DNA from: Nanobdellota archaeon | Lineage (GTDB): Archaea; Nanobdellota; Nanobdellia; Pacearchaeales; GW2011-AR1 | DNA: 64,000 nucleotides | Assembly (NCBI GenBank): GCA_018815925.1 | Contig: JAHIWS010000021.1 | Location: forward strand, 25,641-89,640 | Direction: 5' to 3' | Shown here: positions 1,995 to 18,466 of the stretch, one piece after another | Position numbering within the stretch: the first letter of the stretch is position 1 | Layout of the letters: the number at the start of each line of letters is the position of its first letter | Position numbers and translations under genes: made by a program | Notes under the pieces: generated by a model | The model's database searches: none | What the model was told of the DNA's origin: nothing | Seen by the model: only the letters and a program-made list of their open reading frames with translations

Positions 1995-2498
1995 TTATAA
2001 CTTCTTTTTTCCGATAACCCTTAACATATCAAAAAAAGACTTTTTCTCAAAGTCCGTTATCCTCATATCTTCAAGATTAATATTAATTTTTATTATTCCT
2101 AAACTTGAAATAAAAATTGTTCCAACTAAAATTTCTTTTTTATCAAACTTTTGCAATGAAAAGAGTAATTTTTGAATCTTTTTATAAATTTTTTCTTCTT
2201 GCATTTTTTCTTTAATCATCTTTTCAACTTCATTAAAATCAAAACTAATATTTAAATTAATCTTTTTTGGAACTTCATCTCCAATCATCTCAACAGGCAC
2301 AAAATTTTCAGACTCAAGTTGAAAACTAAATATTTTTTTATCTTTTGGTATATAAAAATCAAAATGATTTTTATTATCATTTTTTTCTAAATCAATAATA
2401 AAAAAACCACTACAAGGATATGCATCTGGAAATTCTGTAATAAATTTCTCATACTTATCTAAACTCTTAAGTTTCTCAACATAAAATTGAAGGTTCAT
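1995..2498 (-). CDS. hypothetical protein
   Basis: 167-aa ORF whose start overlaps the thrS stop by 4 nt (operon-like). No recognisable motif. Confidence 0.45.
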   Translation of the reverse strand: MNLQFYVEKLKSLDKYEKFITEFPDAYPCSGFFIIDLEKNDNKNHFDFYIPKDKKIFSFQLESENFVPVEMIGDEVPKKINLNISFDFNEVEKMIKEKMQEEKIYKKIQKLLFSLQKFDKKEILVGTIFISSLGIIKININLEDMRITDFEKKSFFDMLRVIGKKKL

Positions 2499-4186
2499 TT
2501 TCTACTAGAAATCTCTACTTTCAAACCTTTAATAAATTTATCTAATTTCACATTCTCAATTTTTTTGTTTCCTCTTGTTCTGATAGCCACACTATTACTT
2601 TTTTCTTCTCTATCTCCTACAACTAATATATAAGGAATTCTATTTAACTCAGCATCTTTAACTTTAGCAGAAACTGTTGTTGACCTTAAATCAGAATCTA
2701 ACCTAATATTAGGAATTTCCTTAATCTTTTTTATTATCTTTTCAGCATATTTTTTATTCTTATCAGTAAAACTAAGCACCCTAACTTGAGTTGGAGCTAA
2801 CCAGGTAGGAAACCTTCCATTATAATGCTCAATTAAAATACCAATAAATCTCTCCAAGCTCCCATAAATTGCCCTATGCAACATAACAGGTCTTTTTCTT
2901 TTATTGTCTTTATCAATATACTCTAAATCAAATCTTTCAGGCATTGAAAAATCCAATTGAATTGTCCCAACCTGCCATTCTCTATTTAAAGAATCCTTAA
3001 CATGAAAATCTATTTTAGGACCATAAAAAGCACCATCACCCTTATTTAATTTAAAAGTAATTTTTTTCTTTTTTAAAACTCTTTCTAAAATTTTTTCAGA
3101 TTTATCCCAAATTTTATCTAATCCTATTCTTATTTTTGGTCTTGTTGAAAGTTCTATCCTATATTTTAAATTAAATTTATCATAAAAATAACCAATAAGA
3201 TCAATAAGTGCATTAATTTCATTTTCTAATTGATCTTCAGTGCAAAAAACATGTGCATCATCTTGAATAAATTGAATAACTCTAAATAAACCAGCCAAAA
3301 CCCCACTCAACTCTTGCCTATGAACAGTTCCAAACTCTCCAACCCTCAAGGGCAAATCCCTATATGATTTGATATTTGTCCTGTAAACAAGCATACCTCC
3401 TGGACAATTCATTGGCTTAACTAAAAACTTTCTTTTTTCATACTCAGTTACAAAATTATTTTCTTTATATTTATCCCAATGGCCAGAAACAATCCATAAT
3501 TTTTTATCCATAATTTCGGGAGTAGAAATTAATTCATAATTTTCTTTTCTTAAAATCTCTTTTGAAAAATTAATTAATTCATCCCTAATAATTAATCCAT
3601 TATTATGCCAAAAAACCATTCCAGGAGCAGCTTCATTAAAACTAAATAAATCCATTTGCCTTCCAATTATCCTGTGATCATTTTCTTTTAGTTTAGAAGT
3701 ATCAAGTTTTGCTTTAGAAATTTCTCTTAAAAGTTGTTTAGAATCATATTTTTTATCATCTTCAACACCCTGAATATTTATCTCTCTACTCAACTCACTC
3801 AAAGGATGACCTTTAACTTTTAATTCAAATTCTTTATAATATCCAAAAGGTGCTCTCACAACTTTGAAATTTTTATTTAAAATCTTTTCAGCTTCTTTCA
3901 TTACATTCACTGCAACATCAGGAGAACTTAAATTTTTAGACAAATGAGCATAAGGATAAATAACAATATTCTTAACCTTAACTTGTGTTGCAATATCTTT
4001 AATCTCTTTAAAATAACTATTTACAGAATTCTTACTATCTGTTTTTTCAACAGCAGTCAAAATTACTAAACACTCTTTTACTTCCTGACCTTTTTTCTGC
4101 TTCTCACTCAGCTCTTCTACTTTTTTCAAGGCCTTTTTCAAAGGCTTAAATTTAATATAATCACAATGTAATGATAGTATTTTCAT
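2495..4186 (-). CDS. thrS: threonyl-tRNA synthetase, archaeal type with N-terminal editing domain
   Basis: N-terminus MKILSLHCDYIKFKP resembles the archaeal ThrRS editing domain. Class II motifs LFRVIQFIQDDAHVFC and HRAIYGSLERFIGILIEH are present, plus a C-terminal anticodon-binding region. GGAGGT lies 14 nt upstream of the ATG. Confidence 0.92.
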   Translation of the reverse strand: MKILSLHCDYIKFKPLKKALKKVEELSEKQKKGQEVKECLVILTAVEKTDSKNSVNSYFKEIKDIATQVKVKNIVIYPYAHLSKNLSSPDVAVNVMKEAEKILNKNFKVVRAPFGYYKEFELKVKGHPLSELSREINIQGVEDDKKYDSKQLLREISKAKLDTSKLKENDHRIIGRQMDLFSFNEAAPGMVFWHNNGLIIRDELINFSKEILRKENYELISTPEIMDKKLWIVSGHWDKYKENNFVTEYEKRKFLVKPMNCPGGMLVYRTNIKSYRDLPLRVGEFGTVHRQELSGVLAGLFRVIQFIQDDAHVFCTEDQLENEINALIDLIGYFYDKFNLKYRIELSTRPKIRIGLDKIWDKSEKILERVLKKKKITFKLNKGDGAFYGPKIDFHVKDSLNREWQVGTIQLDFSMPERFDLEYIDKDNKRKRPVMLHRAIYGSLERFIGILIEHYNGRFPTWLAPTQVRVLSFTDKNKKYAEKIIKKIKEIPNIRLDSDLRSTTVSAKVKDAELNRIPYILVVGDREEKSNSVAIRTRGNKKIENVKLDKFIKGLKVEISSRK

Positions 4187-4416: not shown

Positions 4417-4869
4417 TTAAGCAACTTTTCCTGCAATACTTCCACTAGATGTCAAAGGTAATGAACTTCCTGATCTTGTATAACCAACATTAATATCTCC
4501 ACTTATAGTATCTCCAGAACTTAAACCAGTACAACCAGTCCAAGTAAATACAGTTGTTTCACCAGCAGTCATATCAACTGCTACAGGAGCAGTACAAGTA
4601 CCAGTAGAAGGCTGACTAATACTCAATGTAGGAGTTACAGCTGTTATATCTTCTCCACCATTATTTCTAATTTCAACTTGTATTTGTGTAGCACTATAAG
4701 TTACTCCGACTCCATAAAATGGAGCACTAACAACTACTGAATTAGAAACTAATGTGCTAGGTCTAAAATAAATTGCAATAACAGCAATAACAATTATTGC
4801 AGCTAAAATAGCCCAACCATAGGTCATCAAAAATTCCATAGCAGCCTGACCTCTTTTTTCTTCTCTCAT
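4417..4869 (-). CDS. archaeal type IV pilin-like protein (class III signal peptide)
   Basis: N-terminus MREEKRG/QAAMEFLMTYGWAILAAIIVIAVIAI has a basic stretch, a G/Q cleavage motif, Glu at +5 and a hydrophobic helix. The C-terminal part is Thr/Ser/Gly-rich. Confidence 0.8.
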   Translation of the reverse strand: MREEKRGQAAMEFLMTYGWAILAAIIVIAVIAIYFRPSTLVSNSVVVSAPFYGVGVTYSATQIQVEIRNNGGEDITAVTPTLSISQPSTGTCTAPVAVDMTAGETTVFTWTGCTGLSSGDTISGDINVGYTRSGSSLPLTSSGSIAGKVA

Positions 4870-5023
4870 ATTTTACCTCCTTTTGATTTTTTGGTTTTAA
4901 AAACTTATATCTTAACGTAGATAATTTAGTATTTAAATCTTGTCTTTTTATTAATTTTATATTAATGAAATTTTAATAAATTAATTTCTCGTCCTTAATA
5001 ATAATTTTCAAAAATAATCTTTT

Positions 5024-5944
5024 TTAAACCCCATACTTTGTATCATGACCGTCCTCAGCATCAATCTTAAACCACGACGGCATATTAGGAACACTATCAT
5101 GTGCAACAGGATTTAAACTACTAAAATAAATATAATCAATACAAGATTTGTCACGAATAATAAGTGCTTGTGCAGAAAGATCTGGAATATTTACAAAACT
5201 CTCAATACCATTAATATTAGGGCCAATGTTTCCTTCAAACCTATCTAAAAAACTAGGTGCTTCAGAATTAGCAGCATAATAACCTTTATCAACATGATCT
5301 ACTAAACCAGTAGCATCTCCTCCAGCAGAATAAGCACCTTCATAAGGAGTCTGACTTATTTTTCTTGAAATTCTAGCATAAGTATTAATAGTAAAAAAAG
5401 GATCTTCAAAAGAAGTCACAGGAATTAAAATTGAAATTACTTGAGTCTTTTCCCATCTTGCTAAATCTGTTCTATCTTCCATTACAAAATCAGAAGTAAG
5501 AGTAATATTCACATACCAAGGATCATTTTGGCTAATATTTAAAACAGAATTATTAAGAGTTATATCCACATTTATTTTTCTTGCTTTATTATTTAAAGAA
5601 TCAACAATATCCTCATAAGTTGCTCCAATTAAAATTGTACTATTTGCCGGCACTCCTAAAATAGTTGCATTAAAAAAAGCTTCTTGAAAAAAACCATCAA
5701 TATCAGGAATATAAACTCCTGAGGAAGTTATTTGATTTTCTGCTAAAAATAAAATCCTAAATCCAGAAATATAAAGTTGTCTTTCAAGATTATCTTCAAC
5801 AGAAAATAGAAAAGAATCCATACTAGAAACCCTTGTCTTAATTGATTTGTTTTCAGAAAAATAAGAAAATAACTCAAAAGATAAAAACATCAAAGAAATT
5901 AAAAAAATTGCAATTAATGTAAAGAACTGGCCTGATTTATTCAT
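5024..5944 (-). CDS. pilus-associated protein with pilin-like N-terminus
   Basis: MNKSG/QFFTLIAIFLISLMFLSF resembles a class III signal. The start overlaps the upstream phosphatase gene stop by 4 nt. Confidence 0.5.
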   Translation of the reverse strand: MNKSGQFFTLIAIFLISLMFLSFELFSYFSENKSIKTRVSSMDSFLFSVEDNLERQLYISGFRILFLAENQITSSGVYIPDIDGFFQEAFFNATILGVPANSTILIGATYEDIVDSLNNKARKINVDITLNNSVLNISQNDPWYVNITLTSDFVMEDRTDLARWEKTQVISILIPVTSFEDPFFTINTYARISRKISQTPYEGAYSAGGDATGLVDHVDKGYYAANSEAPSFLDRFEGNIGPNINGIESFVNIPDLSAQALIIRDKSCIDYIYFSSLNPVAHDSVPNMPSWFKIDAEDGHDTKYGV

Positions 5945-6345
5945 CTTAACACAACCTCCAAACCATCAACTCTCTTTATTATTTTTTTAATTACCTCTTT
6001 AATCTTCTTAGTGTCCTTTTGATTTGTATCTGAAATTTTCCAGACAATTAATTTTTTAACTCTTCCTTTAAATAAAGATGCTGGAACATTATTTGCAACT
6101 ATCACAACAACATCTTGATTCTTTATTAACTTCTCACTAAGACCTCTTGTCCTCCTGTTGATTTTCAAACCAAATTTTTTTCCAATATCAACTAATTTTT
6201 TATTAACGGAAAACCCTTTAAAAATACCTGCACTTTTAACCCTAAATTTTTTATTGATCTTTTTAAAATAAGTCTCAGCTATTTTACTCCTAAATCTATT
6301 ATGCTTGCAAACAAATAAAATATTTTTCTTCATCTTCATCTCCAA
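5941..6345 (-). CDS. low-molecular-weight protein-tyrosine phosphatase / ArsC-like
   Basis: P-loop ILFVCKHNRFRS matches C-X5-R-S at the expected N-terminal position. About 130 aa. Overlaps both neighbours (10 nt and 4 nt). Confidence 0.7.
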   Translation of the reverse strand: MEMKMKKNILFVCKHNRFRSKIAETYFKKINKKFRVKSAGIFKGFSVNKKLVDIGKKFGLKINRRTRGLSEKLIKNQDVVVIVANNVPASLFKGRVKKLIVWKISDTNQKDTKKIKEVIKKIIKRVDGLEVVLR

Positions 6346-8873
6346 ACTCTTGCTTGAACTTCAGTCTCCCAAACAAAAGGAATTCCATTTACCTCAAATG
6401 AAGCTATTGTAAGCTCATTTTCTTCAAATTTAGTTTCTACTCTTCCATCTCCATCTAAATCCAAAGACAAAAGCAAATCATAAATAGCATAATCAATTGC
6501 ATCATTAGGATTAAACACATAACCTGCAGAAGTATAGGAACAAATTTCAGTTCCAGAATAACTAGGTGGAAAAACCATTGTTGAATTTGTCCCATCTTCA
6601 AATTCAATTGTCCATATACAACCTTTTGCAGAAGCAACAATAGGTGAAAAACCAGAAATATTTTTAGCAACAGAATAAATAATTTTATTATATTGTGACC
6701 CACTAGTAAAATTTTCAGACCCAACACCTAAAGAAACTCTTACAGAATTTTCTCCTGGTCTTACTTCACTTAAAGGGATATTAATTAAATAAGGATCTCC
6801 TAACTCAGTATAAATATCTCCATACTCTGAAAGATTAAAAATAGTGTTCCAGCCACCTAAATTATTATCATAAATTTCTACCTTACTTGTCCATCTTGAA
6901 CCAGAATAAGAAGTAACACTGACTTCATAAGGAGCAGCATCAAAAGGCAAAGAAAAATTCCCTATAGGTGCAGTACTCCCAAAAATAGGGCTTTCAGCAC
7001 TTATAAGTAATTTATGAGAAAGAGTCCTATCAAAATCAACAGAAATATAAGAACTAGGATACACCTCTGTATAAACTCCCTGAGCAACAATTGTCTGTTC
7101 AGAATATGCTGCATTAATAATCTGTTCAGCAACATCCTCATAAATATCAACTAAATCACTAACATTTCCAGAATAAAAATCACCTCCACCACAATCAGCA
7201 ATTGCCTCTGTTGTATTTTTATCTGCATCATCTCCAAAAGCAATAGCATAAACAATTATCCCATAATCATCATAAGCATCACAAGCAGCTTTAATAGCAT
7301 CATCACCAGCATCATCAGTAATACCATTATAATTTAAATCAGGTGTAACACCTTGTTTTGGGCAATGCACATTCGCTTCACCATCAGTCATAACAACAAT
7401 AGACCTAAAATTCTCAGGAACTGACTGATTATTAAGCCTATCAACTCCTTCATTAATACCACAACAAATACAAGTTCCTCCACCATCATTCCAACCAGCA
7501 ACAACATTATGAAGAGCAACAACATCATTTGAAAGATCATATGAATCACCCATCCGGACATAACCTTCATATCCAATTAATCCAACCCTATTTATAGAAG
7601 AACTTAAAACAGCATCAATAAAAACATTGTTAGCTTGCTTTGCTAAATCTAACTTAGTAGTCCAAACACCATTACAAAGAAAACCTTCACAAGTAGCCTG
7701 GTTCCAATTACAAATAAAATAAGGTGTGACAGAACACCAACCCTCACCCATACTACCAGATAAATCAGTAACAGAAAAAACATCTGCATTTCTAGTTAAA
7801 TTAAGAACATAGGAAACATTTTCCAGTCCAAATCTAAAAGGAATTGTTTTGTAATCCATACCTAAATAATCATTTAAATTATTCCTAAGATAAGCATCTG
7901 TCAAAGTATATTCAACATTTGTTCCATTTCCAGAATAAAGAGTTCTATTTCCTATAGTGAAAAAAACATTATAAGGACTAGTATAATTTAAAAACACTTC
8001 CATACTCTGCAAAAGTCCAGGAACATAAAAACTATCATAAATATTGATAAGACCTTTAATTCCAGGAAATTTAAATTTTCCATTAGTATGAATAGATTGA
8101 GATTCATTATAAATTGACTTGACAAAACCGCCTGCAATATACAAATTTTCACTAGAAGTAAAATAAAGATAATTATTATCTGTAACAAATCCAGAAGAAA
8201 TATTAAATCCAAAAGGCTCGCCTGGAGTTGCATTATAGGAAACAGCTGAGCCACCATTAACAGATAAATTAAAAGGACCTGAAAAAACAGCTTCTCCCCT
8301 AGTAAAAACAACATTTTCTCCTAAATCAAGAGTAATATTTCCATCTCCAATATAACCCCCTAAATAAAAATAACTAAATTTGTTTTCTGAAAATAAAAAA
8401 GCCCTAGAAGAAAAACCACTAGAAGAAGAATTAACATTATTATTAATTCCACTAATAATCTGCCTTGAAGTCCAAACATCTTTTGCACCACCTAAATCAG
8501 TTTCATTAGAATTTGCTATTAACATATTATTAAAATACAGACCAACATTTTCATCCAAACCCAAATCATTTAAAATTGAATTTGCTAAAATCTCTGCATT
8601 CATATCAGAATTTGCATAAAACTCCCCTATTTGTTCTAAAACACTCTGATTAAGGTTAGTTATATTACTACTAAATATTAAAGCCTGAGCTTCTGAATTA
8701 TCAAGTTCCACTATTTTTATATTTGATAATACTTCTAAAAGATCATATTGTACATTAACTTCTTGAGACACGTGTGTTGAAGAAGGCTTAATAAAAAGAA
8801 CAATACCTAGAATAATTACTAATGCTAAAAATGCATCTAAACTAAAATAATAACCTCTTCTATTTTTTCTCAT
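6336..8873 (-). CDS. large pilin-like von Willebrand factor A (vWA) domain protein, candidate pilus adhesin
   Basis: Start preferred at Met23 of the listed ORF (MRKNRRG/YYFSLDAFLALVIILGIVLFI, pilin-like). MIDAS DVFSVTDLSGSMGE and VVMTDGEAN are present. Many NxS/T sequons. Confidence 0.75.
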   Translation of the reverse strand: MRKNRRGYYFSLDAFLALVIILGIVLFIKPSSTHVSQEVNVQYDLLEVLSNIKIVELDNSEAQALIFSSNITNLNQSVLEQIGEFYANSDMNAEILANSILNDLGLDENVGLYFNNMLIANSNETDLGGAKDVWTSRQIISGINNNVNSSSSGFSSRAFLFSENKFSYFYLGGYIGDGNITLDLGENVVFTRGEAVFSGPFNLSVNGGSAVSYNATPGEPFGFNISSGFVTDNNYLYFTSSENLYIAGGFVKSIYNESQSIHTNGKFKFPGIKGLINIYDSFYVPGLLQSMEVFLNYTSPYNVFFTIGNRTLYSGNGTNVEYTLTDAYLRNNLNDYLGMDYKTIPFRFGLENVSYVLNLTRNADVFSVTDLSGSMGEGWCSVTPYFICNWNQATCEGFLCNGVWTTKLDLAKQANNVFIDAVLSSSINRVGLIGYEGYVRMGDSYDLSNDVVALHNVVAGWNDGGGTCICCGINEGVDRLNNQSVPENFRSIVVMTDGEANVHCPKQGVTPDLNYNGITDDAGDDAIKAACDAYDDYGIIVYAIAFGDDADKNTTEAIADCGGGDFYSGNVSDLVDIYEDVAEQIINAAYSEQTIVAQGVYTEVYPSSYISVDFDRTLSHKLLISAESPIFGSTAPIGNFSLPFDAAPYEVSVTSYSGSRWTSKVEIYDNNLGGWNTIFNLSEYGDIYTELGDPYLINIPLSEVRPGENSVRVSLGVGSENFTSGSQYNKIIYSVAKNISGFSPIVASAKGCIWTIEFEDGTNSTMVFPPSYSGTEICSYTSAGYVFNPNDAIDYAIYDLLLSLDLDGDGRVETKFEENELTIASFEVNGIPFVWETEVQARVWR

Positions 8874-8895
8874 TTTTTGTCTTTTTTTGATTTGT

Positions 8896-9363
8896 TCATT
8901 TCCACACAAACAATTGAAATTTAACGGGTTTATTTTCATAAATAGTCAGTCTAGTAGTCTGGATTAAATTATCTACTTCTGTAGTATTTAGTATACCAAC
9001 ATAATTTCGAGGAACTCCGCTAATCTTCATATTATTTATACTAAAATAAAAATTAAAATTTAATCCTAAGAAATTCCTTTTATCATTATCACTTAAGGCA
9101 TCAAAATTTTCTAATTTTGTTTGATTAACTTTGTTATCAGATAAAATTCCAACACCAACCTCACTTAAAATTAATTCAGAAGCTAAATTACCCTCATAAA
9201 AAAATTCATCTAACTTATCTTTTGATTGAGAAGAAAGATTTATAGCATAATAAAATAAAATAAGAAGGCCAAATAAAAAAATAATTGTTGCCACAACTAG
9301 ATCAAAACTCCAAATCTGACCTTTCTTTCCCTTAGATTTTTTAATTGATAAAAACTGTTCCAT
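8896..9363 (-). CDS. pilin-like protein (class III signal-like N-terminus)
   Basis: KGKKG/QIWSFDLVVATIIFLFGLLILFY. The start overlaps the upstream pilin gene end by 23 nt. Confidence 0.6.
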   Translation of the reverse strand: MEQFLSIKKSKGKKGQIWSFDLVVATIIFLFGLLILFYYAINLSSQSKDKLDEFFYEGNLASELILSEVGVGILSDNKVNQTKLENFDALSDNDKRNFLGLNFNFYFSINNMKISGVPRNYVGILNTTEVDNLIQTTRLTIYENKPVKFQLFVWK

Positions 9364-9730
9364 TTTGTTTTGTTATATTATTTTGCCCTTTTTGTATTGA
9401 ACCATTTACTTCTGGAATTTTATAAAAAAAGATCATATTGCCCATTGAAACATTAACAAAATCCTCTATAATACCCACCTCATATTCTTTTCCTAAAACA
9501 TTTTGAGGTATCTTAAATACTCTAAAATATCCCTCTGAAGATTCTGAAGCAAGACTAATTTCATCTCTTACACTTAATGCAATATTCTGCAAAAGTAATT
9601 TTTCTTTTTCTTTATTTTTCTCATTCATATTGTTTTGAATAACCCCTAAAAAAGTCACAAAAAAGATTAAAACAAATCCTATTAAAACTAAAAATTCTAT
9701 TGCACCTTGGCCTTTTTTAATAAAAAACAT
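9341..9730 (-). CDS. archaeal type IV pilin-like protein
   Basis: MFFIKKG/QGAIEFLVLIGFVLIFFVTF has a G/Q site, Glu+5 and a hydrophobic helix. Confidence 0.75.
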   Translation of the reverse strand: MFFIKKGQGAIEFLVLIGFVLIFFVTFLGVIQNNMNEKNKEKEKLLLQNIALSVRDEISLASESSEGYFRVFKIPQNVLGKEYEVGIIEDFVNVSMGNMIFFYKIPEVNGSIQKGQNNITKQNGTVFIN

Positions 9731-9798
9731 ATAATCACCTCTTAAAAATATTAGGCAAAGGAATATATAAAATTAAGTATTTAAAATTCCAGAGATAA

Positions 9799-9806
9799 TT
9801 TTATAT
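9799..9806 (+). promoter_or_regulatory. TATA-box-like element (TTTTATAT) 30 nt upstream of ATG 9829
   Basis: Same spacing as at several other genes in the window. Confidence 0.4.
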
Positions 9807-9828
9807 ATCTTACAATATTTTAAAAGAT

Positions 9829-10461
9829 ATGCAAACCCAAACAAAAATAATTTGGAAAATTTTTTTTATATTTATGGCGGTTTTAATTATAATTAGCATA
9901 TTATTTTTTCTAAAAGGAGATGATACTAATGATATTCTAAAAAAAATAACCCAAAATATTTTTGAAAATAACAAAGATAATCAAAAAACAACCTCTGATT
10001 CAGATAACACTCAAGAAATAATTACTTCTAGCCAAGATCAAAGTTCTTCATCTGGTGGAGGTGGTGGAGGAGAAAGTTCATCTTCTGAATCTAGTTCCTT
10101 AGACCTAGAATGCACTGGAAAAGAAATAAGTTACTCAATAATTAATAAAAATAAAACTTCTATTTGTAATTATTATTCAGGAGACATTTGTATTGATAAA
10201 ACAGTTAATTGTTATGCAGAGATTTATAACAGAGATACCACAATTAATGGCCTCTTTAAAATAGAACTAAGATTTCTAAAAGAAGAAGAAAACCAAGAAA
10301 ATGCTCTTGAAATCATAACAAAAGAATTTTTTTTAAATGCTCAAGAACATTATGTCTTTGAAGATTATATAAATATTCAAAGTACTGGAGAAAATGGAAG
10401 TGCAAATAAAGAAATATATTGCTTTTTTAACAGCATCATAATTCCAAGAAAGTGCACTTAA
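9829..10461 (+). CDS. membrane-anchored or secreted Ser/Gly-rich, Cys-containing protein
   Basis: N-terminal TM helix (IIWKIFFIFMAVLIIISILFFL), an S/G linker (SSSSGGGGGGESSSSESSS) and a Cys-containing C-terminal domain. Confidence 0.45.
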   Translation: MQTQTKIIWKIFFIFMAVLIIISILFFLKGDDTNDILKKITQNIFENNKDNQKTTSDSDNTQEIITSSQDQSSSSGGGGGGESSSSESSSLDLECTGKEISYSIINKNKTSICNYYSGDICIDKTVNCYAEIYNRDTTINGLFKIELRFLKEEENQENALEIITKEFFLNAQEHYVFEDYINIQSTGENGSANKEIYCFFNSIIIPRKCT

Positions 10462-10570
10462 AATAAAAAAGATAATAAAAAAAACAAAAAGATAATAAAA
10501 ATAAATAAAATTATTGTTGGTACAAGTGATTTTTCATAAACCTTTAATTCTAATTTCCTGTTTCCAGATA

Positions 10571-10846
10571 TCAATAGTGAGGAAATAAACAAATCCAGCA
10601 CCAACCCAATCCCAAGCCAAACAAAGCCAACACATAAATATTTTTACCTATGAAAATTAAAATAAATATTGCAATAAGAATAAAAATAATTCCATAGTGT
10701 AAATGATGAATTTGTAAACCTGTCTTTCTCCTCAACCAAAATTCTTTAAAATAAGCAGGGTGAATAACATACATAATCCTATAATAAATTAAGGGGAATA
10801 ACAAAAATATAATGAAAGTTAATAATTCATTCATTCTAAGCTTCAC
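10571..10846 (-). CDS. small integral membrane protein
   Basis: Three predicted TM helices. The start overlaps the pilin gene end by 11 nt. Confidence 0.4.
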   Translation of the reverse strand: MKLRMNELLTFIIFLLFPLIYYRIMYVIHPAYFKEFWLRRKTGLQIHHLHYGIIFILIAIFILIFIGKNIYVLALFGLGLGWCWICLFPHY

Positions 10847-11246
10847 TTATATCTAAATAATTTTCATATGCTGTAAGCACTAATTTCTTTGTTCCCTCTG
10901 TTATAGAAATTGTTCCCTGAATTGGAACATCACTCCTAAAAATTTCTCTATTATCACCTGAACTAGTACTTGTAACAACTAAAATATATTCATCATAGAT
11001 CGTAATCTCCCCTATGCCTGCTGGTAAAAAAAGACTAATAGAGGTCTTACTAGGCTCTCCTGAAAAAAACACTGATTCAGCTGAATTCAAAAGTTGGGTA
11101 AAAAAACTTTCTACCTGATTTAATTTAATTCGATCCTTTATCTTATCAGAATAAAACATAGCAATGACTAAAACAGACATAACAGCAAAAGTAACAAAAC
11201 TAATAACAATCATATATTCTATTCCAACTTGCGCTTTTTTCACCAT
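10836..11246 (-). CDS. archaeal type IV pilin-like protein
   Basis: MVKKA/QVGIEYMIVISFVTFAVMSVLVIAMF has an A/Q site, Glu+5 and a hydrophobic helix. Confidence 0.7.
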   Translation of the reverse strand: MVKKAQVGIEYMIVISFVTFAVMSVLVIAMFYSDKIKDRIKLNQVESFFTQLLNSAESVFFSGEPSKTSISLFLPAGIGEITIYDEYILVVTSTSSGDNREIFRSDVPIQGTISITEGTKKLVLTAYENYLDISEA

Positions 11247-11322
11247 TTTTTAGTAAACTTTATATAACTACTCATCTAATAAATATTAAAATAAGTATAT
11301 AAACATTTTCAGAAAAAAGATA

Positions 11323-11838
11323 ATGAAAAAAAGAGTTTTTTTAATAGTGCTAATTGTTATAATAATTTTATCAGGATTAAATATTTTATTATTTACAAAC
11401 AAAGGAACAATATCTTATGCATCAATTTCAGGAAGAATTACAGATAGCGATAAACCTCTTCCAATGGGAATAAGTATATCAGTAATAGCATTTATTATAC
11501 AGTGGATAATACTTTTATCTTTGCTATTTTTTGCCTATAGTAAATTTGTAAAACATAAAAAAATAGAAGAATTAAAAATAAATACCCCCTTAATAAAAAA
11601 GAAGAAAACAAAATCAGAAACAGATTTAGATATTTTATATGAATTATTAAAAGATAAAAAAAACCTAAGCATAAATTCTATTGGAAAAGTCTTTGACATT
11701 ACAAAAGAAAAAGCTCTAGAGTGGTCAAAAATTCTAGAGAATCATGAATTAGTAAGAATAGAATATCCTGCTTTCAATCCTCCAGAGGTAAGAATAAATG
11801 AAAAAGGAACAAAAGAAAATAATCAAAAAACTGTCTAA
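11323..11838 (+). CDS. membrane protein with C-terminal winged-helix-like domain
   Basis: Two TM helices, then DLDILYELLKDKKNLSINSIGKVFDITKEKALEWSKILENHELVRIEY, which looks like a wHTH. Sits immediately upstream of the pilus ATPase and overlaps it. Confidence 0.45.
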   Translation: MKKRVFLIVLIVIIILSGLNILLFTNKGTISYASISGRITDSDKPLPMGISISVIAFIIQWIILLSLLFFAYSKFVKHKKIEELKINTPLIKKKKTKSETDLDILYELLKDKKNLSINSIGKVFDITKEKALEWSKILENHELVRIEYPAFNPPEVRINEKGTKENNQKTV

Positions 11839-13918
11839 AATACAAACAAACAAAAAGAAAACTTTTAAAAATAAATTAAAAAATAATTTTTTAACAAAAA
11901 AAAGACAGTTAGTAAAAACCAAACAACTATTTAGGCCAGATGAAAAAAAAACAGATTTCCAACCAAACATATCAGAAAATTATCAGTTAAACATAGACAA
12001 AGCAGTAGTAAATATCAAAATAAGTAAAACAGAAGAAGGATTAACTTATAGTCTTTTTATTCCTGAAATAGAAAAAGGAACAGAAGCTTTATTAGATGAT
12101 ATAAGGAAAGACCTCATCACAATTACAAGCATTTCAATAGGTGAAATGGCTGATAAAAAAGCTGTTGAAAAAATAAAAAATAGATTCATAACTGATGCCC
12201 ATAACTTATTAAGAAAAAAAGTTCCCGACATTCAAATTGAAACCCAAGATTTTCTAATTGGGATGTTAATGCAAGAAATGCTTGGCTTAGGAAAAATAGA
12301 ATTCCTCATAAATGACCCTCAACTAGAAGAAATTGTAATTACCAGCAGTAAAGAACCAATAAGAATCTATCACAAAAAATATGGATGGCTTAAAACCAAC
12401 ATAATTCCAAAATCAGAAGATGAAATAGTAAATTATTCTAATATAATTGCAAGAAGAGTTGGAAGACAGATAAATGTTTTGGAACCCCTTCTTGATGCTC
12501 ATGTTGTTACAGGTGACAGAGCCAATGCAGTCCTATATCCTATTTCAACAAAAGGAAATACAATAACAATAAGAAAATTTGCAAGAGATCCTTTTACTAT
12601 TGCACATTTAATTGAAAACAAAACAGTAAGTATAGAAATAGCTTCCTTATTATGGCTTGCAATAGAATATGAGATGAATGTCCTAATTTCAGGAGGAACA
12701 GCTTCTGGAAAAACTGTTTTTCTTAATGCATGTATGCCTTTTATCCCTCCAAACCATAGGGTAATTAGTATGGAAGACACTAGGGAATTAATGTTGCCTG
12801 AATTCTTATATTGGTGCCCCCTTGTGACAAGAACTGCAAATCCTGAAGGAAAAGGAGAAGTTTCTATGTTAGATTTACTTGTAAACTCCTTAAGAATGAG
12901 ACCTGATAGAATAGTTCTAGGAGAAATAAGAAGACAAAAAGAAGCAGAAGTTTTATTTGAAGCTATGCATACTGGACACTCAGTATATGCAACTGTCCAT
13001 GCAGATACTGCAAATGAAACAATAAGGAGACTAACTAATCCTCCTATTAATGTTCCCCCAAATATGCTAGGTAATGTAAATCTAAATGTAGTAATGTTCA
13101 GAGACAGAAAAAGAGGTTTAAGAAGAACATCCCAAGTAGCAGAATTTATGCCTGGTAAAGAAAAAATTACTGCAAACATACTTCACAGATGGATTCCAGA
13201 AACAGATCAATTTGTAATTCACAATACAAGTCTATCTCTTTTTGATGAACTAGGAAGACATACAGGAATGTCAGAAAAAGAAATTCAAGAAAATCTAGAT
13301 AAAAAGAAAAAAATTCTAGAATGGACTATCAAAAACAAACTAAATGATTTAAAAACTATTGGAAAAATAATGAATCTTTATTATATGAATAAAGAAAAAC
13401 TTTATGACATAATAAAAAATAACTCAATAGATAAACTAAAAGAACCTAAAAAAATAGTTCCTCAAAAAATAAAACTAGAACCAAAACTAACTCCAAAACC
13501 AGAAATCAAAAATGAACCTTTTAAAAAGGTTGTCAAACCAGAAGAAGAAATAAGAAAGGAAAAGTTTGAAATTCCAATGATAAAAAAGGAAATAAAACCA
13601 CTTTCACAATTAAAAATTAAAGAATTGCCTCAACAACCCACATTCAAAGCAGAAAAAAAATTAATTCCTCCATTAGAATCAGAATATCTAAAAAGAAATT
13701 TATATCAACAACAACTCCAAAAACCAAAAACCCAACAAACACCTCAAAAACCAAGAATAAGAGAGGAGTACAAAAGAATTCCTGAAAAAATACAACCAAA
13801 AAATTCCCATCCCTCTAATGAAATGGATAAAATGAGAGAAGAAATAATGAAAATAGAGGGAGAATTAAAAAATTCTAAATTAAGAATAAGGAAAAAATAT
13901 CAAAAAGGAGGATTCTAA
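11798..13918 (+). CDS. type II/IV secretion-family ATPase (archaeal PilB/FlaI/VirB11-like) with long Lys/Pro/Glu-rich C-terminal tail
   Basis: Walker A SGGTASGKTVFLNA, Asp box MEDTRELMLP, Walker B DRIVLGEIR, His box HTGHSVYATVHAD and the N-domain motif TITIRKF. The last ~170 aa are low complexity. Confidence 0.9.
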   Translation: MKKEQKKIIKKLSKIQTNKKKTFKNKLKNNFLTKKRQLVKTKQLFRPDEKKTDFQPNISENYQLNIDKAVVNIKISKTEEGLTYSLFIPEIEKGTEALLDDIRKDLITITSISIGEMADKKAVEKIKNRFITDAHNLLRKKVPDIQIETQDFLIGMLMQEMLGLGKIEFLINDPQLEEIVITSSKEPIRIYHKKYGWLKTNIIPKSEDEIVNYSNIIARRVGRQINVLEPLLDAHVVTGDRANAVLYPISTKGNTITIRKFARDPFTIAHLIENKTVSIEIASLLWLAIEYEMNVLISGGTASGKTVFLNACMPFIPPNHRVISMEDTRELMLPEFLYWCPLVTRTANPEGKGEVSMLDLLVNSLRMRPDRIVLGEIRRQKEAEVLFEAMHTGHSVYATVHADTANETIRRLTNPPINVPPNMLGNVNLNVVMFRDRKRGLRRTSQVAEFMPGKEKITANILHRWIPETDQFVIHNTSLSLFDELGRHTGMSEKEIQENLDKKKKILEWTIKNKLNDLKTIGKIMNLYYMNKEKLYDIIKNNSIDKLKEPKKIVPQKIKLEPKLTPKPEIKNEPFKKVVKPEEEIRKEKFEIPMIKKEIKPLSQLKIKELPQQPTFKAEKKLIPPLESEYLKRNLYQQQLQKPKTQQTPQKPRIREEYKRIPEKIQPKNSHPSNEMDKMREEIMKIEGELKNSKLRIRKKYQKGGF

Positions 13919-14800
13919 ATGAAATTCAGAATTCCCTTATCTATCACTTCTGATATAGAAATTTTAAAAAGAAGAAGTAAAAATTTTGTTAAATTCACCA
14001 ATCCAAAACCAAGTAAATTAGATGAATATCTAAAAGACACTGATGCAAATATTAACAGAAGACAATACCTAGCAATTTGTTATAGATATTTTGTATTTAA
14101 TTTATTGACATTAACTGTTATATCTACCTCGTTATTTGGCATTTTTCAAGCAAGATTGTTCTATATTTATGGACTAATTCCTGCATTTTTAATTTCAGGA
14201 TTTATTTTGGCAAACCAAGCTTATCATCCAAAAATGTATTCTATGAACAAAGCCAAAAACATTGAAAAAAATTTAATTTCAGTTCTTCAAGATATGTTGG
14301 TGCAATTAAATTCAGGGATTCCTATGTTCAGAATTCTTGTTAATATTGCAGAAGCAGACTATCAAGAAGCAAGCAAAGTATTTGGAAATATAGTAAAAGA
14401 AATAAATACAGGAATTTCCCATATAGAAGCTATAGAAAAATATGGAAAATCAACAAATTCCCAATATCTCAAAAGAGTTCTTTGGCAGATTAGCAATGGT
14501 ATGAGATCTGGAAGTGATATGACACAAATAATAAAAGAGGGTATTAAATCACTAGTAGAAGAACAAACAATTCAAACACAACAATACGGGGGAAGGCTTA
14601 ACCCCTTAATTATGTTTTATATGCTAATTGCAGTAATTTTGCCTGCACTAGGGATTACTTTTTTAATAATTATTTCATCAATATTAAGCCTAGAAGAAAA
14701 AATAATGCAAGGTATTTTTGCCGGAATTTTTGGGGTTGTTGTTTTGATCCAAATCATGTTCCTAGGTGCAATTAAATCAAGGAGACCAAGTTTATTATGA
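13919..14800 (+). CDS. type IV pilus platform protein (T2SSF / FlaJ / TadB-like)
   Basis: Cytoplasmic helical T2SSF-like region (LQDMLVQLNSGIPMFRIL...ISNGMRSGSDM) flanked by TM helices. Abuts the ATPase stop. Confidence 0.75.
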   Translation: MKFRIPLSITSDIEILKRRSKNFVKFTNPKPSKLDEYLKDTDANINRRQYLAICYRYFVFNLLTLTVISTSLFGIFQARLFYIYGLIPAFLISGFILANQAYHPKMYSMNKAKNIEKNLISVLQDMLVQLNSGIPMFRILVNIAEADYQEASKVFGNIVKEINTGISHIEAIEKYGKSTNSQYLKRVLWQISNGMRSGSDMTQIIKEGIKSLVEEQTIQTQQYGGRLNPLIMFYMLIAVILPALGITFLIIISSILSLEEKIMQGIFAGIFGVVVLIQIMFLGAIKSRRPSLL

Positions 14801-15759
14801 ATCTCTTAAAAATATATCCTGAAAAATTCAGAGAAAATTACAAAAAAAACATAAAAAACGCAGGAATAGAAAAAGCACCAGAAGAATACCATAATTTTAT
14901 TTTTAAATTAAGCCTTATAATTGCGTTAATTTCGATTAGTTTTTTTTACTTCCTAAAAATAAATCTAATTTATTCTTTAGGAATTTTTATTCTTTTAAAT
15001 ATTTTCTTTTATTTTAAAACAAATCTAAAAGCAACTACAAGAATAAAAAAAATGGAGATTCTATTCCCAGATGTTATCTCTTTAATGGCAAGTAATTTAA
15101 GATCAGGAATAACAATTGAGAGAGCATTTTTACTTGCAGCAAGACCTGAATTTGCTCCATTAGATAAGGAAATATTAAATGCAGGTAAAGATATTACAAC
15201 AGGTATAGAAATTGTACATTCACTAAAAAAAATGAGTGAAAAAATAAATTCTGAAAAAATATCTAAAATAATAAATCTAATAAATTCTGGATTAAAAGCA
15301 GGAGGAAACATTGCAGATTTATTAGAACAAACATCATCTAATATGAAAGAAAAAGAAGTCCTAGAAAAAAAAGCAGCTTCAACAACCCTAATGTATGTAA
15401 TATTTATTTTTGTTGCAGTGGCAATAGGTGCACCAGTATTATTTGCATTAAGCTCTGTACTAGTTGAAGTGGTAATAAGTCTTGCTGAAAGGGTTCCTGA
15501 CGCAGGCAATATTCAAATGAACCTCCCACTCACATTTAGCAAAGTAGCTATATCAGTAAATTTCATTATTTATTTTGCAATATTCTTTATGATTGTCACA
15601 GATTTTATATCTTGCCATGTAATAGGTGTGGTAAACAAAGGTGAGGGAAAAGCAGGATTAAAATATTTTTTACCAATTATAGCAATAAGTATCTTACTCT
15701 TTTTCTTAATAAGAAAATTTGCATCTGGATTATTACTAGGTGTATTAACATCTACTTAG
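14797..15759 (+). CDS. type IV pilus platform protein (T2SSF / TadC-like)
   Basis: FPDVISLMASNLRSGITIERAF...INSGLKAGGNIADLLEQ plus multiple TM helices. 4-nt overlap with the previous gene. Confidence 0.75.
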   Translation: MNLLKIYPEKFRENYKKNIKNAGIEKAPEEYHNFIFKLSLIIALISISFFYFLKINLIYSLGIFILLNIFFYFKTNLKATTRIKKMEILFPDVISLMASNLRSGITIERAFLLAARPEFAPLDKEILNAGKDITTGIEIVHSLKKMSEKINSEKISKIINLINSGLKAGGNIADLLEQTSSNMKEKEVLEKKAASTTLMYVIFIFVAVAIGAPVLFALSSVLVEVVISLAERVPDAGNIQMNLPLTFSKVAISVNFIIYFAIFFMIVTDFISCHVIGVVNKGEGKAGLKYFLPIIAISILLFFLIRKFASGLLLGVLTST

Positions 15760-15793
15760 GAATATTTAAAAAACAAAGTATCTTTTAAATAAT

Positions 15794-16837
15794 ATGGGAA
15801 AAAAAACAACTAAAAAAAAGAAGGGTGTAAAGAAAAAACCATTAAAAAGAATTTCTAGAAAAAAGACTCTTAAAAAGAAAAGTAAGATTAAGGAAAAACC
15901 TAAGAAAAAAACTAATAAAAAGAAATCTTCTCAAGTAACTAAGAAAAAACAAACCAGACCCTCACGAATACAGTCCATTTTGTCTAAGCACATCCAAAGC
16001 AAAGAAAAACCAATACAAACAATAGAAAAACCTACGCTTCTTCCAGAAAGAATTTTACAAAGACCAAAAACAAGGTTCATTAGAAATATTGTAAAAAATT
16101 CAAAAGGAGTTCTAAGAAGAACAAATATAATATCAAAACTACCAAAAATAGGAACAGGAATTTCTGGATTTGATCAAATAAGTGAAGGAGGATTTGAAAA
16201 AGAATCAATTAATCTAGTTATTGGGGGAAGTGGGAGTGGAAAAACTATTTTTGCTTTGCGTTTTTTATTAGAAGGAGTAAAAAGAGGTGAAACAGTTTTA
16301 TATGTAAGTTTTGAAGAAAAGAAAAAAGAATTCTACAACAACATGGGAAAATTAGGATGGGATTTACAAAGATTAGAAAATTCAGGAAAATTTATTTTCC
16401 TTGAGTACTCTCCTGAAAAAGTGAAAATGACTCTTGATGAAGGAGGGGGTACAATTGAAACCCTTATCCTAAGGCACAAAATAACAAGAATGGTCATGGA
16501 TAGTATTACTAGTTTTTCATTATTATTTGAAGATGCTTTATCAAAAAAACAAGCAAACCTAGGATTATTTGATATAATAAATAAATGGAACACAACCACC
16601 CTTCTTACAGTCCAGCATGACCCTTTAAAAGGAAAAAGTGAGGATGTTTCTACAATAGAATTTGAAGCAGACAGCATAACTCTTTTATATTTCACAAAAG
16701 TAAGGGGAGAAAGAAAAAGATTTATTGAAATCCTAAAAATGCGTGGAACAAATCATTCAAAAGATACCTATATGTTTGAAATAGGCAGAGGAGGAATAGT
16801 GATTGGAAGACAAATAAATCTTAAAAAATTTATTTAA
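15794..16837 (+). CDS. KaiC/RecA-superfamily ATPase (ArlH/FlaH-like) with Lys-rich N-terminal tail
   Basis: GISGFDQISEGGFEKESINLVIGGSGSGKTIFALRFLLEG (Walker A), VLYVSFEE, Walker B-like MVMDSITS. The first ~110 aa are K-rich and low complexity. Confidence 0.8.
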   Translation: MGKKTTKKKKGVKKKPLKRISRKKTLKKKSKIKEKPKKKTNKKKSSQVTKKKQTRPSRIQSILSKHIQSKEKPIQTIEKPTLLPERILQRPKTRFIRNIVKNSKGVLRRTNIISKLPKIGTGISGFDQISEGGFEKESINLVIGGSGSGKTIFALRFLLEGVKRGETVLYVSFEEKKKEFYNNMGKLGWDLQRLENSGKFIFLEYSPEKVKMTLDEGGGTIETLILRHKITRMVMDSITSFSLLFEDALSKKQANLGLFDIINKWNTTTLLTVQHDPLKGKSEDVSTIEFEADSITLLYFTKVRGERKRFIEILKMRGTNHSKDTYMFEIGRGGIVIGRQINLKKFI

Positions 16838-16918: not shown

Positions 16919-17980
16919 TTAATTTCTTAAAATGCTCTTATCCAAATCACTTTTACTAACTTTTTTAAGACTAGACTGAAATTTTTTTACAAATTTAGAT
17001 AATTCTTCAAACAACCTTTCTTTAACATCTTTTGTTAATATTTTTCCAGATTTGTAATCTTCAACAAGATTCTTACTTTGTTTTTCATCTAAAAATAATT
17101 TAGTCAAATAAAAGCAAGAAACATCTTTGTCAGAATCTGCTCCTTTTTTTCTCTGCTCTTCAGCTGTAACTGCTCCACCACTAAAAGCCCTATTAACCTT
17201 TTTCTTTATCACCTCTAAACTATCATTTAAAAAAATAGCATTATTTTTTGATTTAGACATTTTTTTCCCATCTATTCCTGGAAGAAAAAAACTATGAAGA
17301 ATTGCTGGTAATCTATATCCAAATTTACGTGCAACATCTCTTGAAATCCTTATGTGAGCATCTTCATCAGGCCCAATTATAACTAAAACATTTTTAATAT
17401 TAAATTTTTCTTGTGGAAACAAAACATGTGCGGACTGAACAGCCGGATAAAAATACATCCCAGGATTATCTTCATTTTTATACCCATAAGTAGCTTTAAT
17501 TTCAGAAAGGGTTATTTTTTTAGAAAGTTTAACTGCAAAATTATAAATATCTGTGTATATCTGATCAATTATAAAAAAAGTATTCTTAGGATCAAACCCA
17601 TAAGCTATTAATTCTTTAGCTAATTCTAAGGAATTTTTTAATGCTTCTTCTTGATCTTTTACTTTTCCAGTAATATAACTCTCATCGTCAGAGATAGGGA
17701 TAAAAACAGGAAGCTTATATTTTTTCTGGAAAAAAAGATTTGTATCAAAAACAGGTTTATGTCCTAAATGTATTGTTCCTGAAGCATTAAACCCAGAAAG
17801 AATAGCACATTTTTCACCTTTTTTTAAAGCAGAAAAAAATTTATCAAAATCTCTGTGAGAATAAATAAGATTTTTCTGAAAAGTATAAAATTGAGGCAGT
17901 TTACCTAATTTGGATATACGCACAGCTCCAAATTTCTCCACGAGCTTCCTATTATCTTCTTCTAAATTATTAATATCCAT
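16919..17980 (-). CDS. trpS: tryptophanyl-tRNA synthetase (archaeal/eukaryal type)
   Basis: HIGH-type GTIHLGH, ISDDESY (equivalent to the TDDEK element of TrpRS) and the KMSKS loop GKKMSKS. Confidence 0.85.
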   Translation of the reverse strand: MDINNLEEDNRKLVEKFGAVRISKLGKLPQFYTFQKNLIYSHRDFDKFFSALKKGEKCAILSGFNASGTIHLGHKPVFDTNLFFQKKYKLPVFIPISDDESYITGKVKDQEEALKNSLELAKELIAYGFDPKNTFFIIDQIYTDIYNFAVKLSKKITLSEIKATYGYKNEDNPGMYFYPAVQSAHVLFPQEKFNIKNVLVIIGPDEDAHIRISRDVARKFGYRLPAILHSFFLPGIDGKKMSKSKNNAIFLNDSLEVIKKKVNRAFSGGAVTAEEQRKKGADSDKDVSCFYLTKLFLDEKQSKNLVEDYKSGKILTKDVKERLFEELSKFVKKFQSSLKKVSKSDLDKSILRN

Positions 17981-18022: not shown

Positions 18023-18466
18023 TTATGGTACCTGTGCATTGCTTAATATTTCTTGCACTTCTTCATAAGTCATTGTCTGAAGACCAGATTCTTTAGCAGG
18101 ATTAGAGCACACACCAACTTGCTCAACAGGAACAGGTCCTGCTTTATATAAATAAAACATTAAATAAGTTACATCAAACATATTAACAAGACCATTATTA
18201 TTAACATCACCACAAGAAGTAATTGGATTACAAAAAGGTGCAGACCCTCCTTTGCATAAATAAGATATTAAATAGATTACATCAAACATATTGACTGTTT
18301 TATCTCCATTTGCATCTGCACATAATGGTGTAAAAGGAGAAAAAGATATTTCCCCATCATTCATAAAATTATCAAACTCCACAGCAAAAAATACCTCAAG
18401 AATTAAAATTCCCATCAAAAAACTAATCAACCATTCCTCCTTACCCATGAACTTTCCAAGCACCAT
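18023..18466 (-). CDS. membrane-anchored dockerin-domain protein
   Basis: N-terminal TM helix. Two dockerin/EF-hand-like repeats: DANGDKTVNMFDVIYLISYL and DVNNNGLVNMFDVTYLMFYL. Confidence 0.7.
   Translation of the reverse strand: MVLGKFMGKEEWLISFLMGILILEVFFAVEFDNFMNDGEISFSPFTPLCADANGDKTVNMFDVIYLISYLCKGGSAPFCNPITSCGDVNNNGLVNMFDVTYLMFYLYKAGPVPVEQVGVCSNPAKESGLQTMTYEEVQEILSNAQVP

Follow-up and report, generated by a model that had tools for sequence, protein, structure and literature searches.

The question raised by this locus is what kind of surface machine a small-genome archaeon of the phylum Nanobdellota (order Pacearchaeales) builds from a cluster of pilin-like, ATPase, and membrane-protein genes, and whether this machine is as unusual as an earlier note on the same DNA had proposed. 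Pacearchaeota and similar DPANN archaea have not been brought into culture, and we know of no established mode by which they attach to their hosts. The window, i.e., the whole stretch of 64,000 nucleotides (nt) analyzed here, covers positions 25641-89640 of contig C14 in a genome of 929,670 bp (29 contigs; estimated completeness, 87.7%). The G+C content was approximately 28%. The locus lies at 4417-16837 of the window, between the genes for threonyl-tRNA synthetase (ThrRS, 2495-4186) and tryptophanyl-tRNA synthetase (TrpRS, 16919-17980), and contains no RNA genes or tRNAs. These boundaries, taken from the earlier note, delimit the feature correctly, as the ThrRS and TrpRS flanks recur in several close relatives.

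A scan of one genome per species yielded 80 related loci with assembly ATPases 58-75% identical to that of the window, and all window proteins were then compared with these loci by tblastn. The nearest relatives of the locus were found in metagenome-assembled genomes labeled Pacearchaeota, Woesearchaeota, or Nanoarchaeota. Domain searches, synteny, and a structural model of one pilin (pil1) bear out the reading that the locus belongs to a type IV pilus (T4P), its platform split, with six pilins and an ATPase of the KaiC family. The locus very probably encodes a complete assembly machine for an adhesive T4P of the archaeal Epd/Tad-like class (clade 1 of Makarova, system 1), in the standard version of the Pacearchaeota- and Woesearchaeota-type Nanoarchaeota.

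All open reading frames (ORFs) described before were recovered at the stated coordinates in the ORF listing, and the pilin genes run divergently from those that Pfam searches identified as encoding a T2SSE ATPase, two T2SSF proteins, and a KaiC-like ATPase. The plus-strand operon is densely packed. It is headed by the gene for a membrane-anchored winged helix-turn-helix (wHTH) protein of 171 amino acids (aa) (11323-11838, +), which overlaps by 41 nt the gene for a PilB/VirB11-family assembly ATPase of 706 aa (11798-13918, +). The ATPase matched T2SSE (PF00437) with 111.7 bits against a cut-off of 24.9 bits (E = 4e-32) and has the Walker A motif GGTASGKT. Its gene directly abuts that of the first platform half (TadC1, 293 aa; 13919-14800, +), which in turn overlaps by 4 nt the gene of the second half (TadC2, 320 aa; 14797-15759, +). 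A gap of 34 nt precedes the gene for the KaiC-like ATPase (347 aa; 15794-16837, +). The assembly ATPase also carries low-complexity tails, namely a Lys-rich N-terminus (11798-11965, 38% K+R) and a C-terminus of 160 aa rich in K, P, E, and Q (13430-13918).

The two platform proteins contain one T2SSF domain (PF00482) each, above the cut-off in both (E = 9.2e-13 for TadC1 and 1.6e-13 for TadC2), and are 23% identical to each other. TadC1 aligned with positions 3-168 and TadC2 with positions 192-456 of the 465-position ArlJ model. Because the halves match the N- and C-terminal parts of ArlJ, the platform is truly split into two half-size proteins. The wHTH protein had no match to any Pfam or NCBIfam family. 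Its AlphaFold2 (AF2) model (pLDDT 81) shows two transmembrane helices, and its C-terminal part, modeled at pLDDT 93-97, forms a winged helix, for which Foldseek returned wHTH folds of the MarR/ArsR type (E ~1e-3).

The minus strand encodes the pilins, and all six N-termini with a basic stretch, a Gly or Ala, and a hydrophobic helix were found as previously described, with motifs that are kept in orthologs. With a slash marking the predicted cleavage site, these are pil6 (136 aa; 10836-11246, -; KKA/QVGIEY), which is the first gene divergent from the ATPase operon, pil5 (129 aa; 9341-9730, -; KKG/QGAIEF), the minor pilin-like pil4 (155 aa; 8896-9363, -; KKG/QIWSFD), the vWA/MIDAS protein pil3 (6336-8873, -, 845 aa from the second ATG, or 6336-8939, 867 aa from the first; RRG/YYFSLDAF), the pilin-like pil2 (306 aa; 5024-5944, -; KSG/QFFTLI), which has no acidic residue near its N-terminus and no Pfam family match, and pil1, the candidate major pilin (150 aa; 4417-4869, -; KRG/QAAMEFLMTYGWAILAA). 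Glu at +5 was confirmed in the three proteins for which it had been claimed, pil1, pil5, and pil6. Tight spacing or overlaps run from pil5 through pil2.

The signals were highly conserved. In pil1, residues +1 to +6 (QAAMEF) and Met at +8 were present in 41/41 orthologs and Leu at +7 in 40/41, and pil6 retained Q+1, E+5, and Y+6 in all 65 of its orthologs. The corresponding values were 60 of 62 for Q+1 and E+5 in pil5, and 53/57, 52/57, and 53/57 for Q+1, W+3, and D+6, respectively, in pil4. D+6 of pil3 was found in 55/57 orthologs, with a class III-type signal in 57/58, and the pil2 pattern KK[GA]/x-x-F-T in 49 of 54. Because these motifs are kept in orthologs from up to 68 other species, the six predicted signals are far beyond what chance would produce.

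In particular, pil1 combines an N-terminal helix that is invariant among orthologs with a variable C-terminal globular domain. Its gene has its own upstream region of 154 nt, with GGAGGT ahead of the ATG and a T-run past the stop codon. The AF2 model (pLDDT 90) has a pilin-like fold, consisting of a helix (residues 6-34) and a beta-sandwich (residues 44-148), and the best full-length Foldseek matches, all of them weak, were the Sulfolobus Aap pilin, a Pyrobaculum T4P pilin, and the archaellin of M. hungatei. Since the invariant helix with a variable globular part, the separate upstream region with GGAGGT, and the pilin-like model are properties of a major pilin, pil1 is the candidate for this role. 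The pil1 family was found in 181/301 genomes of the phylum. It is present as a single copy here, whereas a genome of other Nanoarchaeia may have as many as 13 copies, and some copies elsewhere in the phylum form part of considerably longer fused ORFs (300-770 aa). The copy numbers and fusions suggest pilin diversification or modular pilins.

Processing of these pilins calls for a prepilin peptidase, and the earlier note was correct that the window contains no A24 enzyme, the sole match in the genome being on contig C22. This was a genome-wide check that the note had itself proposed: a six-frame search of the 930-kb genome returned one Peptidase_A24 match (C22:5589-6446, -, 285 aa; PF01478, 44-48 bits against a cut-off of 26.5 bits) with both catalytic Asp motifs. 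A24 matches were present in 30/31 related genomes, including all 9 high-quality ones, and 28 of the genomes had just one copy. Within the 80 related loci, no A24 homolog was found. Because the peptidase is found in 30/31 relatives yet in 0/80 loci, its location outside the pilus locus, usually as a single copy, is the rule in this order. The absence from the window is thus not the oddity it had been taken for, as the enzyme is encoded in trans in this genome and likewise outside the locus in relatives. A peptidase encoded away from the locus is usual in archaea, and the peptidases are interchangeable between systems (PMC6668835). The C22 enzyme would be available to pil1-pil6.

The peptidase gene itself ends a second T4P-like locus (C22:5589-15500) with seven small pilin-like genes, one of which has a bacterial-looking signal (KKG/FLLAEE), a platform-like protein of 719 aa for which Pfam gave no T2SSF match, and a very divergent 761-aa ATPase (T2SSE, 1e-12). 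A third T4P-like locus (C26:48193-54295) encodes a 520-aa ATPase, another split platform (432 + 276 aa, a single T2SSF domain in either half), and a pilin bearing the signal KTRG/QIWVE, with wHTH-like genes and genes of unknown function interleaved. Additionally, a 4-kb contig (C15:119-1615) carries three tandem pilin-like genes with no machinery genes visible. One of these has the archaeal Pilin_N motif KKKG/VSPVIATVLLI, with PF07790 above the cut-off.

The gene content and order of the focal locus were conserved among the 80 related loci. An 11-gene module, comprising the six pilins, the wHTH protein, the ATPase, TadC1, TadC2, and the KaiC-like ATPase, was complete in 28 of the 38 loci having at least 8 kb on each side. 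pil6 and pil5 diverge from the wHTH-ATPase-TadC1-TadC2 operon in nearly all 80 loci, with pil6 directly divergent from the wHTH gene in 68 of them, and the wHTH gene is present in 78/80. TATA-box positions in the divergent pil6/wHTH spacer (58 loci) were too noisy in DNA of 28% G+C to indicate specific promoters. The pil4-pil3-pil2-pil1 block is placed either upstream, as in the window, or directly behind the KaiC gene on the same strand, and never leaves the cluster. Orthologs of pil2 were detected in 54/80 loci, and pil4 always adjoins pil3.

The KaiC gene follows TadC2 in most of the 80 loci, and its protein is the component for which the earlier description held only in part. It was called a KaiC/ArlH-like ATPase; membership of the KaiC family is well supported (PF06745, 184.7 bits, E = 2e-54), but orthology to ArlH is not, as the NCBIfam ArlH model (NF052589) gave 60.5 bits against a cut-off of 215. 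The protein has a single domain, unlike the double-domain KaiC of the clock. Walker A (G144-K150), the FEE pair (E174/E175), and Walker B (D236) are invariant or nearly so among 37-59 orthologs, in which the KMRG motif is also kept. A profile built from 37 orthologs scored 37 bits on FlaH of S. acidocaldarius (4YDS) and 118-157 bits on single-domain KaiC-like chains. For KaiC itself, the score was 142-145 bits with single-domain CI constructs and 210-300 bits with full-length chains containing both domains. By these scores, the protein is a generic single-domain KaiC homolog and not an ArlH ortholog. The N-terminal tail is polybasic (15794-16129; 112 aa, 39% K+R). Tails of the orthologs range from 2 to 120 aa and are polybasic throughout; 44/51 have tails of at least 15 aa, in which the median K+R content is 45%.

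That KaiC ATPases accompany some archaeal T4P loci, as the earlier note stated, has been published (PMC4858521). KaiC-like ATPases are also broad archaeal signaling proteins, and in this case the gene is preceded by the 34-nt gap and a TATA-like motif and lies on the opposite strand in 9 loci, so that it might be a mere neighbor of the pilus genes or a general signaling hub with no specific role in the pilus. We consider this distinctly unlikely. The reduced genome has no other strong KaiC match, the gene was found in 51 of the 55 loci having at least 4.5 kb of sequence downstream, and it keeps to the pilus cluster across several rearrangements, being followed by pil4-pil1 on the same strand in some and placed beside pil1 in others.

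A KaiC-family ATPase that adjoins platform genes, as ArlH does, could equally belong to a cryptic archaellum-like rotary motility machine, and the best NCBIfam match of the assembly ATPase was the ArlI equivalog (288 bits). This match is far below the ArlI cut-off of 550 bits, however, and the ArlH and FlaH scores of the KaiC-like protein are similarly low. No archaellin-type gene (PF01917) was matched in the whole genome at E <= 1, in line with what the earlier note said of the locus, and no other protein of the locus matched ArlF/G or ArlCDE/X in Pfam or NCBIfam. FlaI was also separated from the focal ATPase in the tree described below. The archaellum reading was rejected on the missing archaellins, the ArlI and ArlH scores below their cut-offs, and the weak FlaH profile score, and we regard it as extremely improbable.

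The assignment within the non-archaellum pili was less clear-cut. Compared with chains in the PDB, the focal ATPase scored 239 bits on GspE of A. fulgidus (afGspE), 192 on FlaI, and 160 on CpaF. Together with a weak PilB3_C match below the cut-off (E = 0.0038), the first of these scores would fit a euryarchaeal pilus of clade 2/system 2 (Haloferax PilB3/PilB4-type, afGspE-like) instead of an Epd-like system 1. Many clade 2 loci have KaiC ATPases and two tadC genes, and the clade takes in some Nanoarchaea (Makarova 2016, PMC4858521). In a maximum-likelihood tree (282 columns) of the focal ATPase, ten orthologs, both paralogs encoded in this genome, and three PDB chains trimmed to their aligned parts, the focal clade grouped with the divergent paralog from C22 and with CpaF of Caulobacter (Tad), although references were few and branches long. 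A split with 98% ultrafast bootstrap (UFBoot) support parted the focal clade from afGspE, FlaI, and the C26 paralog, again with only three PDB references and long branches. The C26 paralog was far nearer to afGspE (374 bits) and grouped with it. Despite thin sampling, the tree would thus favor the Epd/Tad-like assignment over clade 2.

Other evidence points in the same direction. The presence of two platform genes is the defining trait of system 1, which has been found in methanogens, Thermococcales, and Nanobdellati, whereas system 2 is described with a single platform gene (2026 census, PMC13705601). Epd-like archaeal pili and bacterial Tad are sister systems that have a fissioned platform in common (Denise 2019, PMC6668835), and Epd-like loci encode a FlaH-family second ATPase beside the main one (PMC6668835). 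KaiC-family ATPases and paired tadC genes have likewise been tied to non-archaellum T4P (Makarova 2016, PMC4858521). The pilins with Q+1 and E+5 resemble EppA substrates. By its architecture and its G/Q...E pilins the focal locus appears to fit system 1, and we consider a clade 2 pilus unlikely.

What the fiber may do is suggested by pil3. A VWA domain (PF00092) was identified in pil3 at 8.8e-6 (26.5 bits against a cut-off of 23.8 bits), and the MIDAS residues DxSxS (D392, S394, S396) and [ST]DG were kept in 44/47 aligned orthologs. Pfam gave no TadE/G-like match for pil3, and homology to TadG is thus not established. The domain and its motif suggest that pil3, held by its pilin-type anchor, binds its target in a metal-dependent manner and is an analog of TadG or PilY1, and it may be placed at the fiber tip as an adhesin.

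T4P-like machines with many minor pilins can also serve secretion or competence, and small-genome symbionts need to import nucleotides. The locus might accordingly build a short pseudopilus, a display or secretion device, or a DNA-uptake pilus in place of the putative long adhesive fiber. A role in DNA uptake is less likely because the genome lacks ComEC. Moreover, the pilin-anchored vWA/MIDAS protein is conserved along its entire length, which speaks for binding, and pil1 has the hallmarks of a polymerizing major pilin, namely the invariant helix, a strong ribosome-binding site of its own, and up to 13 copies in other genomes. We therefore judge a pseudopilus or uptake device to be very improbable, and an adhesive pilus remains our preferred reading.

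In the adhesive pilus proposed here, the six prepilins would enter the membrane and be cut after Gly or Ala at -1 by the single A24 peptidase of the genome, acting in trans. A hexamer of the assembly ATPase would dock on a heterodimeric TadC1/TadC2 platform and drive the polymerization of pil1, while the minor pilins, i.e., pil5 and pil6 (both E+5), pil4, pil3, and pil2, would prime or cap the fiber. The vWA/MIDAS domain of pil3 would be exposed for metal-dependent binding, probably at the tip. A hexamer of the KaiC-like protein would act as a dedicated second ATPase that tunes the assembly ATPase, as ArlH does for ArlI, and would be a functional analog of ArlH in archaella or TadZ in Tad systems, though an ortholog of neither. 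The membrane-anchored wHTH protein may be a conserved partner or regulator at the cytoplasmic face.

Several points weigh against this interpretation. The machine is inferred from its genes, and the genome contains two further T4P-like loci with which roles may be shared. The three small E+5 pilins (pil1, pil5, and pil6) all scored under the gathering cut-off of Class_IIIsignal (PF04021; E = 5e-4 and 20.3 bits for pil5, against 23.7 bits), and membership of this family is not claimed for them for this reason. The Foldseek matches of pil1 were weak (E ~3e-3, best 1.5e-3; TM-score 0.3-0.4) and mixed with generic Ig-like folds. The grouping of the ATPase with CpaF, with three named references and long branches, could be due to long-branch attraction. 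Furthermore, the major pilin of the Epd pilus is short, whereas pil1 carries a globular beta-sandwich, and no short Flp/EpdE-like pilin gene was found among the ORFs of the locus. The locus of M. maripaludis includes an EppA-type peptidase, and the focal locus has none. The globular domain of the candidate major pilin and the lack of an EppA gene in the locus mean that the focal system is not an Epd pilus sensu stricto, as found in M. maripaludis.

Host-cell attachment would be plausible for an organism with a 0.9-Mb genome. The earlier note singled out this locus as the best candidate for the attachment apparatus, a choice that is reasonable but unproven in a genome with two other such loci. 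A stronger version would hold that the 11-gene module is the host-attachment organelle of Pacearchaeota and Woesearchaeota episymbionts, with pil3 as the host-recognition tip and with the KaiC-like ATPase, through its polybasic tail a distinctive protein, and the membrane wHTH protein as integral motor parts on the cytoplasmic side that do the job of ArlH/ArlX or TadZ. We offer this tentatively, as a rather doubtful extension. If it were true, the archaeal ancestor of the Epd/Tad lineage would already have possessed a second ATPase of the KaiC type and a vWA pilin resembling TadG.

Three further genes lie within the locus. The first (5941-6345, -), inserted in the pilin operon, encodes a low-molecular-weight (LMW) phosphotyrosine phosphatase/ArsC-like protein (PF01451, 1.3e-13) with the CX5R motif CKHNRFRS. 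It is translationally coupled between pil3 and pil2, its stop codon overlapping the start of pil2 by 4 nt, and has a 49%-identical paralog on contig C28. Any connection between this phosphatase and KaiC-type phospho-regulation is pure speculation. The second (9829-10461, +), between pil5 and pil6, encodes a membrane-anchored protein of 210 aa, for which no significant Pfam match was obtained. In this protein, a linker rich in Ser and Gly (SSSSGGGGGGESSSSESSS) lies between an N-terminal transmembrane helix and a C-terminal domain rich in Cys. The third (10571-10846, -) encodes a small membrane protein of 91 aa and overlaps the stop codon of pil6. Among the related loci, the phosphatase at this position was found in 3/80, the 210-aa protein in 10/80, and the 91-aa protein in 3/80. 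Because each occurs in at most 10 of the 80 loci, these proteins were rejected as pilus components and are treated as variable, lineage-specific inserts. Just past TrpRS, a small membrane-anchored protein with dockerin type I repeats (PF00404, 1.4e-10; 18023-18466, -) is possibly another candidate for surface interaction.

Every feature that the earlier note found odd is already documented for this class of pilus, and no new kind of machine is described here. A split platform and a KaiC/FlaH-type second ATPase are on record for non-archaellum pili, including those of DPANN archaea (PMC4858521, PMC6668835, PMC13705601), and T4P islands with unrecognizable pilins were noted in DPANN in 2019 (PMC6393860). 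On the other hand, DPANN were reported to show an ordered type IV filament (T4F) locus only rarely, with scattered pilins (PMC13705601), and a groundwater study used pili to separate bacteria of the Candidate Phyla Radiation (CPR) from DPANN archaea, i.e., treated them as absent in DPANN (He et al. 2020 preprint). Our modest addition is that the system of the Pacearchaeales and Woesearchaeales is a fully ordered and strongly conserved 11-gene cluster in approximately 80 species. The contrast with the 2026 census probably arises from profile models that miss divergent DPANN pilins. Additionally, the locus offers concrete candidates for an attachment fiber and its adhesin.

Among known systems, the ArlH-ArlI-ArlJ core of the archaellum shares with the focal locus a combination of three parts, namely two ATPases, one of the KaiC family and one of the VirB11 type, and a T2SSF platform. 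It differs in that the focal platform is split, the ArlI and ArlH cut-offs are not reached, and neither ArlF/G and ArlCDE/X matches in the locus nor archaellins in the genome were found. The PilB3/PilC3 pili of H. volcanii and the GspE-type system of A. fulgidus (clade 2/system 2) are also non-archaellum adhesion pili of archaea, often with KaiC-family ATPases nearby, and afGspE is the closest solved structure to the focal ATPase. They have one two-domain platform gene, however, the focal ATPase stands apart from afGspE in the tree, and the locus on C26 is the afGspE-like one in this genome.

The bacterial Tad/Flp pili (type IVc) differ from the focal system in their secretin and other envelope parts, which the focal locus lacks, in a second ATPase (TadZ) of the ParA/MinD type instead of the KaiC type, and in a Flp-like major pilin, and pil3 has no Pfam TadE/G-like match. 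Both nevertheless have two half-size platform proteins encoded after the ATPase, several pseudopilins with a large pilin-anchored vWA protein (the TadG analog), and a second, accessory ATPase. Adhesion, proposed in the focal case, is a further shared trait, and the focal ATPase may be allied to CpaF, with which it groups in our small tree. The Epd pilus of M. maripaludis (clade 1/system 1) differs in gene order, the focal one being ATPase, two platform genes, and KaiC, and in its second ATPase, as that of the focal locus scores below the ArlH cut-off. The focal locus additionally has a membrane wHTH protein and a vWA/MIDAS pilin, both of them conserved. Otherwise, the two systems have in common two single-T2SSF platform genes by the ATPase, a cluster of approximately 11 genes, multiple pilins with G/Q...E signals, a second ATPase of the KaiC/FlaH family adjoining the core genes, and a link to adhesion.

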